A stretch of 64,000 bases of DNA from Dehalococcoidia bacterium (lineage in GTDB: Bacteria; Chloroflexota; Dehalococcoidia; Bin125): the NCBI GenBank assembly GCA_963555985.3, contig OY820591.1, forward strand, positions 2,976,001-3,040,000, given 5' to 3'. Under the pieces are notes generated by a model that ran no database searches, was not told the origin of the DNA, and saw nothing but the letters and a program-made list of their open reading frames with translations. A program made the translations under genes and the position numbers. Position 1 is the stretch's first letter. The number at the start of each line of letters is the position of its first letter. Positions 39,048 through 61,730 of the stretch are shown in pieces.

Positions 39048-39319
39048 GGGAACCATCTCCAGCGGCTGAGAGCGCCGGTCATCTCACTCTTTGCACCGGA
39101 CCGGCAGTCGGAGCCGCCTCCGCAGGGTTGCTGCGGCGATAGCGACCAGTTAGAGCGTATCGGCGGGTTGGTCTAGCCGCAATCGGAGACTGATGCGTAA
39201 CTCCCGAGTTGTCGAATTTCCGCTATTCCGACTCAATGAGGAGTCCAGTGCTGAGCAGATACGGAGACTGGATTCCCGCGTTCGGAGAGCTTTGCACAAT
39301 CCCCGATCTGAGCGTTTTG

Positions 39320-40336
39320 TCATTCTTGCGAAAGCGAGAAGGTGGGTTCACATTGCAACTGCAACAACTGCCGACCGAAGACTTCGGCCGGGGAGAGGTA
39401 GTCGAGGCACTGGCGGGGGGTGTTGTTGTACAACTGCAGCACTTCGATCAAACGCGCGAGGCTGAGTTGGGCGAGGTCGAGCCGGCGCGGCAGGACCCGG
39501 CGCAGGCGTCCGATCGCATTCTCGATCCCGCCCTTCTGCCAGGGCGCGTAGGGGTCGCAGAAGAAGGTCTCCACGCCCAGCCGGTGCAGTTCGTAGTGGC
39601 GGGCGAACTCGGTCCCGTTGTCGAACGCGACCGTGCGCCGCAGGGCGGGCGGCCAGGCGCGGAGCAGGCTGAGCAGCAGGCGCGCGACCGGAGCGGCCGC
39701 CTTGCCCGCCACGGGCAAGCCCACGAGCAGCCGCGAGGAGCGCTCGTGCAGCATCAGCAGGAGCGGACCGCCGCGCCCGAAGAGCATCAGGTCGGCCTCC
39801 CAGTGACCGGCTTCGAGCCGCCCGGCGGCCGCCGCCGGGCGCTCGCTCAGGGGCCGCCGCAGTTGGATGCGCTCGACCGAACTGCCGCCTTTGCGCCCGC
39901 GCCAACCGCGTTTCGCCTTGCGCCGCGGCAGATACTGGCGCCAACCGCCGCCGCGGCCGGGCTTGGCCCGCGAGGCTTGGGCGTAGATGAAGCGGTAGAT
40001 GCTCTCGTGCGAGATCACCGGCGCGCCCGCCTCGCGCGCCAGCCGGCCTGCGACCTGTTGCGGCGAGAGCCCGCGGGCCAACTCGCGCAGCACCCGCGCG
40101 CGCAGCTGATCGTCGCGTTCCAGCCGCGAACCGCGCCAGCGCCGCGCCTGGGCCTGTTGCTGGGCGTAGTCGGGACGGTAGCCGTCGCGCGCCGTGTTGC
40201 GTTTCAGCTCTCGAGCAATCGTCGATGGCGAGCGATCCAGAGCTGCAGCGATCTGCCGGATCGAGCGCCCCTCGGCCTGTAAGCGGGCAACCGCGCATCG
40301 CTCCGCCAGGTCCAACTGCGTGTACTGCGCGCCCAT
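39320..40336 (-). CDS. IS30 DDE transposase
   Basis: RSPSTIARELKRN, SHESIY, GHWEADL, FDNGTEF, PWQKGGIEN. Confidence 0.95.
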   Translation of the reverse strand: MGAQYTQLDLAERCAVARLQAEGRSIRQIAAALDRSPSTIARELKRNTARDGYRPDYAQQQAQARRWRGSRLERDDQLRARVLRELARGLSPQQVAGRLAREAGAPVISHESIYRFIYAQASRAKPGRGGGWRQYLPRRKAKRGWRGRKGGSSVERIQLRRPLSERPAAAAGRLEAGHWEADLMLFGRGGPLLLMLHERSSRLLVGLPVAGKAAAPVARLLLSLLRAWPPALRRTVAFDNGTEFARHYELHRLGVETFFCDPYAPWQKGGIENAIGRLRRVLPRRLDLAQLSLARLIEVLQLYNNTPRQCLDYLSPAEVFGRQLLQLQCEPTFSLSQE

Positions 40337-40380
40337 GGTCTCACCTCAATCATCTGTCGCACTTCGTCTGTGAGACTAGG
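39341..40380 (-). mobile_element. IS30-family insertion sequence, copy 1 (1040 bp)
   Basis: Imperfect 26-bp IRs, 3-bp TSD (GAA on +), splits a REP family 1 hairpin. Confidence 0.93.
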
Positions 40381-40408
40381 GAATCCACGTCTCACTCGAT
40401 ACGCCGCA

Positions 40409-40518
40409 TGGATTCCCGCTTTCGCGGGAATGACGGAAACGGGAGTTTGCAAAGGCCTCCCTGCGCGGGAATGACGGAATTTGGGATTAGGCGCAGGCCT
40501 CCGTTCGCGGGGATGACG
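40409..40518 (+). repeat. REP family 1 cluster
   Basis: TGGATTCCCGCTTTCGCGGGAATGAC plus two partial tandem units. Confidence 0.85.
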
Positions 40519-40557
40519 ATCAAGTGTTGGTCTGGTGAGCGTCGATCTGTAGAGGCT

Positions 40558-57404: not shown

Positions 57405-59416
57405 TGGGCATGATGGGCGGCGGGATGGCGGGCGGCTGGTCGTCCAATCTGGGCGGCGGCGGTCACGGTCCGCGCAGCGGTTGGGCCAGTTCGCGCATGT
57501 CCACCGACGGCTGGGAGAAGGAATACGGCACTCTCTACAACCCGCAGTTGGTGCGCCGCTTCGGTCGCTACATCGCTCCGCACAAGAAGCGTCTGTTTGC
57601 GGCAATCGCGGCGAATGCGCTCTTCGCCGTCGCGTTCAACATCCAGGTGTTCGTGGTCTATCAGGCCGTACAGGGCGCGCTCGATGAGGGTGTGCTCTCA
57701 ACCCTCGATTGGATTGCCGGCGCGTTCCTCGCGATCGTCGTCCTCTCCTGGCTGACGGAGTTCTTACGCCAATGGCTGATGGCCAACGTCGGACATCCGA
57801 TCCTGCGCAAGATGCGCCAGGACGTGTTTGATCACCTAATGCGACTAGAACATCGCTTCTATGACCGCGGCGAAGTCGGCGCGATCATGTCGCGCGTCAC
57901 CTCCGATGTACAGGTCTTGCAAGAGATGCTGACCAGCGGCGTGCTGACCGTGATCGGCGATATTTTCGGACTCGTGATCATCATGGCGGTGATGCTGGTG
58001 ATCGACTGGCAACTCGCGCTGGTGGCGTTCGCGGTGCTGCCGATTCTGGTGGTGGCGATGGCCTGGTGGAGCAAGCGCGCGCGGCGGGTGTTCCTGGAGA
58101 CGCGGGTGGCGATTGCGGCAGTCAACTCGACCTTGAACGAAGACCTCAACGGCGTGCGCGTCGTGCAAAGCCTCAACCGCGAAGGCGAGAACGCGCGCCG
58201 CTTCGACCGGATTAACAACTGGAACCTGCGCGCGACCCGCCGGGCGGGAATGCTCTCGGCGGCGATCATGCCGCTGGTGGAGATCCTGATCGCGGTGGCG
58301 ACGGCGCTGATCATCGTCGTGGCAGCGATCCGGCTGAGCAATGGCTCGATCACTGAGGAGGTCGGCATCGCGGCGATCATCGCGTTTGCGATCGGGATTC
58401 AGCGCTTCTTCGACCCCGTTCGGGATCTGGTTCTGCAATACACGATGTTCCAGCGCGCGATGGCGGGCGCCGAGCGAGTGTTCGAGGTGCTGGACACGCC
58501 GCCGGAAATTGAGGACGCCGCCGATGCACGAGACCTGCCCGATATCGCCGGACATGTGCAGTTCGACAATGTCTCGCTGGAGTACGTGGAGGATGTGCGG
58601 GTGCTCTTCGATCTCGATCTGGAAGTCCAACCCGGTGAGACCGTCGCTCTGGTGGGCGAAACTGGAGCGGGCAAGACTTCGATCACCTCGCTGATTACGC
58701 GCAACTACGAGGTCACTGAGGGGGCCGTGCGGATCGACGGCAACGATGTGCGCGAGGTGACGCGGGCCTCGTTGGTGCATCGCGTGGGCGTGGTGCTGCA
58801 AGACCCCTTCCTATTCTCCGGCACGGTGCTTGAAAACATCATGTACGGAAATCTGGAGGCGACGCGGGAGCAGGCGATCGCGGCGGCGGAAGTCGTCGGC
58901 GCGCACGAGTGGATCATGCGTCTGCCGCAGGGTTACGACACGCCGCTGGCGGAACGGGCGCAGAATCTGTCGATCGGGCAGCGTCAGCTCGTCGCGTTTG
59001 CGCGGGCGATTCTCTCCGACCCGCGCATTCTGATTCTGGATGAGGCGACTGCGAACGTGGACTCGCAGACCGAAGCGCTGATTCAGCAGGCGATTGCACG
59101 AGTGCTGCGGGGACGCACCGCGTTCGTGATTGCGCACCGATTGAGCACGATCCGCTCGGTGGATCGGATCATCGTGCTCGAATACGGCCGAATCATGGAG
59201 ATGGGTTCGCACGACGAACTGCTTGATCTGGACGGCTACTACGCCAAGCTCTACCGGATGATGTACGCGGAGCAGGAGAGCGTCGAGTTCGACGAGGATG
59301 CGGCGTTGGCGGTGCTGGACCGGATGCGGGAACGGACGAGCGCGAACGGTCGCAATGGCGCCAATGGCGCCGGCGCTCGCACAGAGTCAAACGAACCAGC
59401 CCTCGCCCTCGACTGA
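57404..59416 (+). CDS. ABC exporter, fused permease/ATPase (heterodimer partner)
   Basis: GETGAGKT, LSIGQRQ, LDEAT, AHRLST. Confidence 0.93.
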   Translation: MGMMGGGMAGGWSSNLGGGGHGPRSGWASSRMSTDGWEKEYGTLYNPQLVRRFGRYIAPHKKRLFAAIAANALFAVAFNIQVFVVYQAVQGALDEGVLSTLDWIAGAFLAIVVLSWLTEFLRQWLMANVGHPILRKMRQDVFDHLMRLEHRFYDRGEVGAIMSRVTSDVQVLQEMLTSGVLTVIGDIFGLVIIMAVMLVIDWQLALVAFAVLPILVVAMAWWSKRARRVFLETRVAIAAVNSTLNEDLNGVRVVQSLNREGENARRFDRINNWNLRATRRAGMLSAAIMPLVEILIAVATALIIVVAAIRLSNGSITEEVGIAAIIAFAIGIQRFFDPVRDLVLQYTMFQRAMAGAERVFEVLDTPPEIEDAADARDLPDIAGHVQFDNVSLEYVEDVRVLFDLDLEVQPGETVALVGETGAGKTSITSLITRNYEVTEGAVRIDGNDVREVTRASLVHRVGVVLQDPFLFSGTVLENIMYGNLEATREQAIAAAEVVGAHEWIMRLPQGYDTPLAERAQNLSIGQRQLVAFARAILSDPRILILDEATANVDSQTEALIQQAIARVLRGRTAFVIAHRLSTIRSVDRIIVLEYGRIMEMGSHDELLDLDGYYAKLYRMMYAEQESVEFDEDAALAVLDRMRERTSANGRNGANGAGARTESNEPALALD

Positions 59417-59514
59417 CACTCAGCACCTCTCCCTCTGGAGACCTGCGCGTACATCATTGATCGTCGGGATTCGATCTGTCTTCGTGCTTGCTGAGCAGAT
59501 AGCCGGATGGATTC

Positions 59515-60554
59515 CCTAGTCTCACAGACGAAGTGCGACAGATGATTGAGGTGAGCCCATGGGCGCGCAGTACACGCAGTTGGACCTGGCGGAGCGATGC
59601 GCGGTTGCCCGCTTACAGGCCGAGGGGCGCTCGATCCGGCAGATCGCTGCAGCTCTGGATCGCTCGCCATCGACGATTGCTCGAGAGCTGAAACGCAACA
59701 CGGCGCGCGACGGCTACCGTCCCGACTACGCCCAGCAACAGGCCCAGGCGCGGCGCTGGCGCGGTTCGCGGCTGGAACGCGACGATCAGCTGCGCGCGCG
59801 GGTGCTGCGCGAGTTGGCCCGCGGGCTCTCGCCGCAACAGGTCGCAGGCCGGCTGGCGCGCGAGGCGGGCGCGCCGGTGATCTCGCACGAGAGCATCTAC
59901 CGCTTCATCTACGCCCAAGCCTCGCGGGCCAAGCCCGGCCGCGGCGGCGGTTGGCGCCAGTATCTGCCGCGGCGCAAGGCGAAACGCGGTTGGCGCGGGC
60001 GCAAAGGCGGCAGTTCGGTCGAGCGCATCCAACTGCGGCGGCCCCTGAGCGAGCGCCCGGCGGCGGCCGCCGGGCGGCTCGAAGCCGGTCACTGGGAGGC
60101 CGACCTGATGCTCTTCGGGCGCGGCGGTCCGCTCCTGCTGATGCTGCACGAGCGCTCCTCGCGGCTGCTCGTGGGCTTGCCCGTGGCGGGCAAGGCGGCC
60201 GCTCCGGTCGCGCGCCTGCTGCTCAGCCTGCTCCGCGCCTGGCCGCCCGCCCTGCGGCGCACGGTCGCGTTCGACAACGGGACCGAGTTCGCCCGCCACT
60301 ACGAACTGCACCGGCTGGGCGTGGAGACCTTCTTCTGCGACCCCTACGCGCCCTGGCAGAAGGGCGGGATCGAGAATGCGATCGGACGCCTGCGCCGGGT
60401 CCTGCCGCGCCGGCTCGACCTCGCCCAACTCAGCCTCGCGCGTTTGATCGAAGTGCTGCAGTTGTACAACAACACCCCCCGCCAGTGCCTCGACTACCTC
60501 TCCCCGGCCGAAGTCTTCGGTCGGCAGTTGTTGCAGTTGCAATGTGAACCCACC
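59515..60554 (+). mobile_element. IS30-family insertion sequence, copy 2 (1040 bp)
   Basis: Near-identical to copy 1; TTC TSD at 59512-14 and 60555-57 inside a REP. Confidence 0.93.
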
Positions 60555-60575
60555 TTCCCGCCTGCGCGGGAATGA
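59559..60575 (+). CDS. IS30 DDE transposase
   Basis: Same protein as copy 1 except the last residues, which are encoded by target DNA. Confidence 0.95.
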   Translation: MGAQYTQLDLAERCAVARLQAEGRSIRQIAAALDRSPSTIARELKRNTARDGYRPDYAQQQAQARRWRGSRLERDDQLRARVLRELARGLSPQQVAGRLAREAGAPVISHESIYRFIYAQASRAKPGRGGGWRQYLPRRKAKRGWRGRKGGSSVERIQLRRPLSERPAAAAGRLEAGHWEADLMLFGRGGPLLLMLHERSSRLLVGLPVAGKAAAPVARLLLSLLRAWPPALRRTVAFDNGTEFARHYELHRLGVETFFCDPYAPWQKGGIENAIGRLRRVLPRRLDLAQLSLARLIEVLQLYNNTPRQCLDYLSPAEVFGRQLLQLQCEPTFPPARE

Positions 60576-60647
60576 CGGAAATGGGGATTACGCGCAGGTC
60601 TCCTCTGGGGGAGGCCACGGGCTGCACGCTCAGCTTCGGAAACGCTG

Positions 60648-61730
60648 CTAGCTCGCATCGAACAGTGTGCCTTGATCGGGCCCGCCGTTTGGGGGCGTCA
60701 GGCCCAGGTGACTCCATGCGGCCGGCATGGCGATGCGGCCCCTTGGGGTGCGGGCGAGGAAGCCCAGCTGCATCAGGAACGGCTCGTAAACGTCCATGAC
60801 CGTATCGGTCTCTTCGGCGATGGCGGCGCTGAGGGTGTCCAGGCCGACAGGGCCGCCATCGAAGCGGGTGATCAGGGTGTGGAGGAGGCCGCGGTCGCGT
60901 TCGTCGAGGCCGAGTTCGTCGATTTGGAGGCGGGAGAGGGCTTCGTCGGCGACGGCTTCGGTGATCACGCCGTCGGCGCGGACTTCGGCGAAGTCGCGCA
61001 CGCGGCGAAGCAGGCGGTTGACGATCCGGGGAGTGCCGCGAGCGCGGCGGGCGAGCGTCTCGGCGCCAGCGGGTTCGAGCTCGACATTGAGCGCGTGAGC
61101 GGAGCGCTTCACGACGAGTTCGAGTTCTTCGGGGCTGTAGAAGTCGAGCCGCTGGACGATGCCGAAGCGGTCGCGCAGGGGCGGAGAGAGCATGGCGAAG
61201 CGGGTGGTCGCGCCGACCAGGGTGAAGGGTTTGATCGCGAGACGGACGCTGCGCGCGCCGGGTCCTCTGCCGATCAGCACATCAAGGGCGAAGTCCTCCA
61301 TCGCCGGATAGAGCACTTCTTCGACACCGCGCGGGAGGCGGTGAATCTCGTCGATGAAGAGCACGTCGTGGGTTTGGAGGGTGCTGAGCAGGCTGGCGAG
61401 GTCGCCCGGGCGCTGAATGGCGGGGCCGGAGGATGGTCGCAGGCTGACGCCGAGTTCGGCGGCGACGATGCGGGCCAGCGTGGTCTTGCCCAGTCCGGGC
61501 GGGCCGTAGAGGAGCAGGTGATCGAGCGGCTCTTCGCGCGCGCGGGCTGCATCGACTGCGATTCCCAACGCTTCATGCGCTGTGGCCTGGCCGACGAACT
61601 CGGTCAGGCGGGAAGGCCGCAGGGAGCGCTCGCCGGCGTCGGACTCGCTCTGATGCGCGCCGTCGACGATCCGGCCGACGGCTGCGCCTTCCTGTTCGGC
61701 GCTGTCGTTGGCAGGTGTCTCGTCAGGCAT
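60648..61730 (-). CDS. ruvB: Holliday junction branch migration helicase RuvB
   Basis: [38 protein letters not shown]. Confidence 0.96.

Follow-up and report, generated by a model that had tools for sequence, protein, structure and literature searches.

An IS30-family insertion sequence of a Dehalococcoidia bacterium occupies hairpin repeats and ends its transposase frame at a stop codon of the target

The 64,000-nucleotide stretch analysed here ("the window"; positions 2,976,001 to 3,040,000 of contig OY820591.1, assembly GCA_963555985.3, Dehalococcoidia bacterium) carries two copies of a 1040-bp insertion sequence (IS) of the IS30 family. Both copies have entered a dispersed hairpin repeat at an identical base and with identical orientation. 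The transposase reading frame has no stop codon inside the element, crosses its right end and terminates at a TGA of the target DNA. Comparison of all copies in the genome and of relatives from other genomes points with good confidence to an active, minimal element of a large IS30 clade, which is distributed over several phyla and chooses hairpins of the Neisseria Transformation Sequence (NTS)/SRM type. The stop codon borrowed from the repeat would be a tolerated by-product of this target choice.

Anatomy of the element and its insertion sites

Copy 2 is located on the plus strand at 59515..60554 and copy 1 on the minus strand at 39341..40380. These borders mark the start and the end of the identity between the two copies, and copy 1 differs from copy 2 by C42A alone. 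A sequence-only reading of the window, made without database searches, had placed two IS30 copies at precisely these positions, which were borne out by the alignment. The sole long open reading frame (ORF) in sense orientation begins at position 45 of the element, stays open throughout and crosses the last base of the element. It comprises 338 codons in both cases (59559..60575, plus strand, in copy 2; 39320..40336, minus strand, in copy 1), the last six of which are located in the target DNA together with the stop codon. The stop is the TGA of a GAATGAC motif 18 nt past the element end, which appears in copy 1 as TCA on the plus strand at 39320-39322. Accordingly, the two proteins end with different tails, TFPPARE in copy 2 and TFSLSQE in copy 1. 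The missing internal stop, the readthrough to GAATGAC, the protein length and both tails had been described by the sequence-only reading, and the ORFs agree with it exactly. Antisense or alternative-frame ORFs of 139-357 aa overlie the element at 59251-59670 (minus strand), 59613-60542 (minus strand) and 39209-40282 (plus strand). They are unsupported as genes, and long frames of this kind are expected because the DNA is 65% G+C. Neither a sigma-70-type promoter nor an intrinsic terminator was found in the region 59400-60700, which contains the integrated copy 2.

Members of the IS30 family possess terminal inverted repeats of about 20-30 bp and duplicate 2-3 bp of the target. The left and right terminal inverted repeats of copy 2 (59515..59542 and 60527..60554, plus strand) are about 27-28 bp long and imperfect; 15 of 28 positions match in a direct ungapped alignment of the left end to the reverse-complemented right end. 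They were absent from the 25 longest pairs reported by a general repeat finder because they are too imperfect. The end motif of the left repeat is kept in 79 relatives, and that of the right repeat, which codes for the final element-encoded residues ..LQLQCEPT, is likewise kept in relatives. Neither element end shows similarity to the hairpin repeat. The transposase matched the NCBIfam IS30-family profile NF033563 from position 1 to 267 of 267 (E 3.2e-64, 217.2 bits compared to a cut-off of 80). An HTH_38 helix-turn-helix domain covers residues 5-47, and a weak rve match residues 176-265. Three residues that are assumed from their position to be catalytic, D182, D239 and E272, did not vary when the protein was aligned to four relatives (60-85% identity). 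They are spaced by 57 and 33, and the DDE core of the family is described as D-(54-61)-D-(33)-E (excerpt of PMC2516522). The element was assigned to the IS30 family on the basis of the profile match, the helix-turn-helix domain and the DDE spacing, the inverted repeats and the 3-bp target duplication.

On the strand of the element, both copies are located between ..GGATTC and TTCCCGC or TTCTCGC..GAATGAC. The left part of the repeat split by copy 2 (ATGGATTC; 59507..59514, plus strand) ends with the left TTC duplication at 59512..59514. The right part (60555..60578, plus strand) starts with the right duplication at 60555..60557, which doubles as the first target-encoded codon (F). It consists of a 7-bp stem, a 4-nt loop and a 7-bp stem followed by TGACGG, and its TGA at 60573-60575 is the stop codon of the transposase. 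The repeat split by copy 1 is degenerate. Its right part (39317..39340, minus strand), in which six of seven stem positions pair, contains the borrowed TGA and the TTC duplication at 39338-39340 (GAA on the plus strand), and its left part (GTGGATTC on the element's strand; 40381..40388, minus strand) includes the second TTC at 40381-40383. Insertion at TGGA^TTC with a TTC duplication and in the same orientation, as the earlier reading had it, is seen at both sites. The hairpin to the right of copy 2 folded as RNA with -17 kcal/mol and formed the stem. Since this fold did not surpass those of shuffled versions of the 56 nt (z -0.92), the stability of the hairpin alone provides no evidence. An unoccupied repeat of the same family (..ATGGATTCCCGCTTTCGCGGGAATGACGG; 40408..40437, plus strand) adjoins copy 1 and exemplifies an empty site. 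At 40405-40520, beside copy 1, there is a short array of one full hairpin repeat and subsequent partial units (..CGCGGGAATGACGG.., ..CGCGGGGATGACG..), which resembles the mosaic arrays around dRS3 repeats in Neisseria.

The genome (G000) consists of 11 contigs with 3.33 Mb and 65% G+C, is estimated to be 96% complete and includes the window within contig C1. BLASTN revealed ten full-length copies of the element, all of them on C1 and 99.9-100% identical. Four are identical, five carry C386T and one carries C42A. As no solo element ends were found in the genome and the ten copies are nearly identical, the element is probably active. Nine of the ten copies share one insertion point and one orientation within the hairpin repeat, and each of them encodes 338 aa. 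As roughly 150 of 6.7 million combinations of position and orientation are such sites, this exceeds chance. The triplets flanking these nine copies are TTC on both sides in seven cases, and TTT (left) and TTC (right) in the remaining two (C1:259917 = L018 and C1:1954870 = L010). The unequal triplets could result from point mutation, from recombination between copies or from imprecise repair. An equal 3-bp duplication is present in eight of all ten copies. The tenth copy (C1:2308130-2309169) is located between two CoA-transferase family III genes. There is no hairpin at this site, the copy is flanked by AAG on both sides, and the frame extends 76 codons past the element, giving a protein of 408 aa.

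A census of the 3.33 Mb counted about 151 oriented hairpins, 145 of them followed by TGA; nine are occupied and about 142 empty. The hairpins next to the copies vary between sites in their loops (CCTG, CTTT, CCTA, CCTT) and stems (CCCGC, CCAGC, CTCGC), whereas the element is constant. In each hairpin copy, both flanks derive from a single repeat subfamily; outside the repeat, the surroundings of the copies are unrelated to each other. Because the hairpins differ next to a constant element and the left flank matches the subfamily of the right flank, the element must have entered pre-existing repeats. In assembled Logan contigs of four public runs, the element body begins at 59515 and stops at 60554. 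The contig depth in run X1 was 165 for the element body and 15.7 for the flank; such depth is not a copy number, but the roughly tenfold difference fits about ten copies. Internal skips in the public contigs originate from other, diverged elements of the metagenomes. The cumulative GC skew of C1 climbs almost monotonically over 2.8 Mb, from a minimum at 0.27 Mb to a maximum at 3.04 Mb, without a two-armed pattern. A replication origin or terminus could not be placed from this skew, so that no replication-strand orientation was assigned to the repeats and copies.

Nature of the hairpin repeat

The published 28-nt NTS reads CGTCATTCCCGCGMAVGCGGGAATCYRG, and a degenerate SRM pattern has been given along with it (excerpts of PMC11893778). 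According to the same excerpts, the cytosine just after the palindrome is singled out, the ssn gene often has NTS/SRM repeats on both sides, and SsnA, a GIY-YIG enzyme with a single domain and 94 aa, cleaves exclusively single-stranded DNA in the vicinity of the repeat. In the present genome, 81 sites matched the NTS consensus within one mismatch and 137 within three. The SRM pattern had 209 matches in the genome as compared to 29, 32 and 53 in three mononucleotide shuffles of C1. When the element was removed from the copy 2 site in silico, the restored sequence conformed to the SRM pattern and, with one mismatch, to the NTS consensus.

A search for a Y1 (RAYT-type) transposase with PF01797 gave no matches at E <= 0.01 in this genome of 96% estimated completeness. 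Two small GIY-YIG ORFs of 96 aa and 113-114 aa are present (PF01541, E 2e-16 and 8e-15, respectively). The gene for the 96-aa protein (G000:C1:84724-85014, corresponding to L109:1489-1779) lies outside the window and is flanked by two hairpins on each side in inverted orientation. The 113-114-aa ORF (L110:1438-1782) is situated amid variant hairpins (GATTGCCGCG.., GATACCCGCG..). Searches of PDB and NCBIfam with these small ORFs returned no specific name. Considering the consensus and SRM matches, the hairpin-flanked GIY-YIG gene and the lack of a Y1 transposase, the sequence data identify the repeat as NTS/SRM type and not as a RAYT-associated repetitive extragenic palindrome (REP). The label "REP family 1" of the sequence-only reading was therefore correct in pointing to a dispersed hairpin as target, and the assignment to REPs is replaced. 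Read in its published orientation, the repeat is entered by the element at the final three bases of the 3' stem arm, on the side that faces away from both the CGTCA head and the mapped cut.

Relatives and the role of the borrowed stop

Of 41 genomes from the same family and class, a match at E <= 1e-30 was present in five, the genome analysed here being one of them. Genome G022 (85% identity) has four copies, all of which occupy the identical base of this repeat and encode 338 aa. All seven copies in G019 (60% identity) occupy the same place of a repeat variant, TTCCTGC..GCAGGAATGAC. In the intact G019 copy (L003), the frame is closed by the TGA of the repeat after 337 aa. The other six G019 copies (L009, L013, L017, L020, L023 and L025) share a replaced segment that is 10 nt longer and breaks the frame, and they reside at different sites; a defective form has apparently multiplied here, possibly with the intact copy mobilising it in trans. 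In G007 (59-61% identity by tblastn and 60-63% in the search of the 41 genomes), all six copies are located at the foot of a hairpin. Five of these hairpins have a 6-nt loop, which places the TGA out of frame in four copies; the fifth is followed by CGAC, and the sixth copy has a 4-nt loop and then CGAC. The corresponding ORFs are 341, 395, 430, 405, 477 and 363 aa long, and five of the copies are 99.2-99.5% identical to each other.

A wide scan with one genome per species yielded 564 relatives, the best 80 of which, from about 38 assemblies, were kept. Most of these 80 loci belong to Dehalococcoidia/Chloroflexota bins, and others to Binatia, Nitrospirales, Alphaproteobacteria and one Verrucomicrobiota bin. 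We parsed 79 of them, the remaining one being a G022 copy that had already been counted. The hairpin was modelled as 7-4-7 (stem-loop-stem) and regarded as good if at least six of seven pairs formed directly after the element end. A good hairpin with TGA at +19 was found at 56 of the 79 loci, a weaker hairpin with the TGA kept at 11, a good hairpin with CGAC in place of TGA at three, and neither feature at nine. In total, 67 loci have the TGA at +19 and 59 a good hairpin, and the frame stops exactly six codons past the element end at 66. The 3-bp duplications on both sides are equal at 68 and unequal at 11 loci. The triplet preceding the duplication is GGA or AGA in 67 cases and never TCA, so that no reversed orientation was observed. 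Together with the nine hairpin copies of the present genome, all in one orientation, this upholds the fixed orientation of the earlier reading. Other stems are used likewise (TACCGGC..GCCGGTATGAC and TGCCCGC..GCGGGCATGAC), in which case the duplications are TAC or TGC. Four loci from alphaproteobacterial and other bins (L056, L060, L088 and L098) reside in CGAC-ending hairpins and have ORFs of 394-490 aa that have gained no stop of their own. At L040, L042, L082 and L095 the hairpin is shortened, degenerate or absent, and the TGA is still found exactly at +19. L095 is flanked by unequal triplets and has a second TGGATTC in its right flank; the site is not obviously a repeat.

Throughout the clade, the element end coincides with a codon boundary, and no member examined contains an internal stop. 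The protein collection gave 6616 of 8000 scored candidates at E <= 1e-40. In the best 120 protein clusters, 83 are 336 aa long, and "IS30 family transposase" is the only name attached. The six-residue, hairpin-encoded tail is present in 101 of these 120 clusters (86 recognised by script and 15 more by eye). The remaining 19 read on, typically with W or R at the stop position, and some of them hold 50-106 member sequences.

The sequences directly show how the element is built, its specificity for site and orientation, the missing internal stop across the clade and the origin of the stop in the target. All these observations argue for the following route, which we put forward as the probable one. 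The transposase probably picks host hairpins of the NTS/SRM type, repeats associated with Ssn GIY-YIG single-strand nucleases. The element is inserted at three bases of the hairpin foot, on the side opposite the CGTCA head. The single fixed orientation places the whole hairpin directly downstream of the transposase gene. If the hairpin has the usual 7-4-7 geometry, the conserved TGAC follows 18 nt past the element end and in frame, resulting in a six-residue tail of the F-x-x-x-x-E type encoded by the target and then the stop. As the stem itself is palindromic, orientation is presumably read from the flanks, GA before the stem and TGAC after it. Movement may follow the copy-out-paste-in route of IS30 via a joined-ends intermediate, and a dispersed intergenic repeat might serve as a safe harbour. 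The borrowed stop would be no requirement in this scheme, being tolerated in a compact element that lands in a repeat with a conserved TGAC. In simulated junctions of right and left ends with a 2- or 3-bp spacer, a sigma-70-type promoter (TTGAAA-N16/17-TAGACT) is formed in 53 of the 79 relatives, which is IS30-style; at the integrated left junction, such a promoter is present in one of 79. In the relatives L030-L108, TTGAAA is located 12 nt from the tip of the right end, and TAGACT or TAAACT starts at the third base of the left end. A stop-like triplet (TAG, TAA or TGA) at left-end positions 3-5 was considered as a terminator of the frame in a joined-ends circle. This idea was discarded, since four relatives have TGG at these positions and since neither a 2-bp nor a 3-bp spacer brings the triplet into frame.

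Several points weigh against this interpretation. Neither an empty site nor a joined-ends form was recovered from the assembled contigs of the four public runs. The window element itself misses the criteria for the junction promoter, its hexamers being TTGCAA and TAGTCT. The assignment of the two GIY-YIG genes as Ssn-type is inferred from size, domain and flanking hairpins. The 11 of 79 foreign loci with a weak hairpin according to the 7-4-7 model retain the TGA at +19, which could hint at selection for an in-frame stop, and an element end on a codon boundary throughout the clade would also be expected of an adaptation to the TGA of the repeat.

These last two points bear on the proposal of the sequence-only reading that a dependence on the repeat couples correct targeting to proper termination. 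In an adaptive version, the element has dispensed with a stop of its own, as one is provided by correct landing, so that mis-targeted copies would be self-limiting and only targeted copies would make proper transposase. Apart from the codon boundary, the missing internal stops and the TGA at weak hairpins, this is consistent with the exact six target codons in 66 of 79 foreign loci and nine of ten own copies and with the short tail being by far the commonest form in the best protein clusters (101/120). However, 96% of the empty hairpins have the TGA as well, and no enrichment is seen at occupied ones (9/9), a comparison without power because 145 of 151 oriented hairpins carry TGA anyway. Moreover, several near-identical copies are maintained in lineages that lack an in-frame TGA, and their tails comprise 9 to 161 codons. 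Examples are the five closely related G007 copies at 6-nt-loop hairpins with ORFs of 341-477 aa, the four loci in CGAC hairpins and the read-through protein clusters of up to 106 member sequences. One of the ten own copies is located outside any hairpin, with its 408-aa frame; copies at such sites had been named by the sequence-only reading itself as grounds for refutation. Furthermore, the match in frame is a single state, shared by descent, that had a 1 in 3 chance beforehand. A strict dependence on the borrowed stop is thus not supported and has the evidence against it, and we regard the adaptive coupling as unlikely.

It is similarly doubtful that the clade as a whole is adapted to Ssn-type hairpins, such that the flanks fix the orientation, TGAC serves as stop, the hairpin over the last codons brakes or stabilises the message and insertion disarms the nuclease site. 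If this were true, a cut at the foot of the repeat would part the hairpin from the nucleotides that directly follow the palindrome, and each insertion would disarm one nuclease site. The IS clade would then take part in the way the Ssn/NTS system spreads and turns over in different phyla.

The complete hairpin that always follows the right end might suggest that it belongs to the element or is made by it, either because the true right end lies further out or because the hairpins are footprints or miniature derivatives, and that the stop is not borrowed at all. This is very improbable, as the 99.9-100% identical element bodies adjoin different loops and stems, about 142 hairpins are unoccupied, the left flank is the other part of the same repeat subfamily, with the 3-bp duplication restoring an intact repeat, and the element ends are unlike the repeat, which in addition has been published as an Ssn motif in genomes of other phyla (excerpt of PMC11893778). 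Spread by segmental duplication or recombination between repeats instead of targeted transposition is extremely improbable as the main process: the TTT and TTC triplets at two of nine hairpin copies and the unequal duplications at 11 of 79 foreign loci fit some recombination between copies after insertion, but identity ends exactly at the element ends with unrelated flanks past the repeat, equal duplications flank seven of the nine hairpin copies of this genome as well as 68 of the 79 foreign loci, and the same pattern recurs in about 38 assemblies of several phyla.

Comparison with known systems

Insertion sequences that target REPs and transposase stops that are supplied by the target have each been known from other families; the present element would add the IS30 family and a named target, NTS/SRM. 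Target-supplied stops occur, for instance, at the TA sites of IS630-type elements. A precise, oriented and repeat-specific DDE transposase in Chloroflexota, Nitrospirota, Binatia and Proteobacteria bins offers a simple model for the reading of a hairpin site that is asymmetric. Many metagenomic "IS30 family transposase" calls of 336 aa with an odd terminus find an explanation here as well. In annotations, the final six residues of the short-tailed proteins should be regarded as host repeat and not as transposase.

No earlier description of IS30-family targeting of REP, NTS or dRS3 repeats or of a target-supplied stop in this family was found in the literature searched, to which ISfinder and TnPedia did not belong, and a literature search for "CGTC-REP" likewise found nothing. 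Ssn, the nuclease partner of these repeats, was described only in 2025. The likeness to the NTS/SRM-Ssn system (Chenal et al. 2025; excerpts of PMC11893778) consists in the consensus matches and the NTS-ssnA-NTS-like layout around the 96-aa gene. That paper does not mention IS30, and a link between the repeats and an IS30 clade is therefore absent from it.

The E. coli IS30 is a longer element, and its frame ends inside its own right repeat. Host repeat families are not known among its hot spots, which are entered at the centre of symmetry. In contrast, the element described here inserts at the foot of a hairpin repeat, in fixed orientation, and has its stop in the target. IS30 and IS1655 share with it the transposase family with N-terminal helix-turn-helix and typical DDE spacing, a single ORF that fills the element, imperfect ends, a 2-3-bp duplication and a strongly sequence-specific choice of target. 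Near-palindromic hot spots and movement through joined ends have been described for IS30 of E. coli (excerpt of PMC9333248), and IS1655 of Neisseria meningitidis was repeat-associated in just 2/13 and 2/6 copies (excerpt of PMC1525189).

The closest functional parallel is provided by the REP-targeting elements IS1397 and ISKpn1 (IS3), IS621, ISPpu9, ISPpu10 and ISPa11 (IS110) and ISRm22 (IS4), described in the excerpted part of PMC1525189. That IS3 and IS110 elements target REPs had been stated correctly in the sequence-only reading. Like them, the present element occupies a fixed place in a dispersed extragenic palindrome, where all or nearly all copies of a genome are found: nine of ten here, 4/4 in G022, 7/7 in G019 and 6/6 in G007, which places it in the functional class of REP-targeting IS. 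It differs from them in transposase family and chemistry and in the repeat, as theirs are RAYT-type REPs or others and not NTS/SRM. The survey lists IS3, IS110, IS4, IS256 and IS5 but not IS30, and it describes no borrowed stop, the term "stop codon" being absent from it. A transposase stop in host DNA at the insertion site has been reported for the IS481-family elements ISLxc2 and ISLxx4, which have the target NCTAGN (excerpt of PMC2516522). In these elements the stop (TAG) is part of the duplicated target itself, whereas in the present element it is located 18 nt past the element end and 15 nt past the 3-bp duplication, in the conserved flank of the hairpin.

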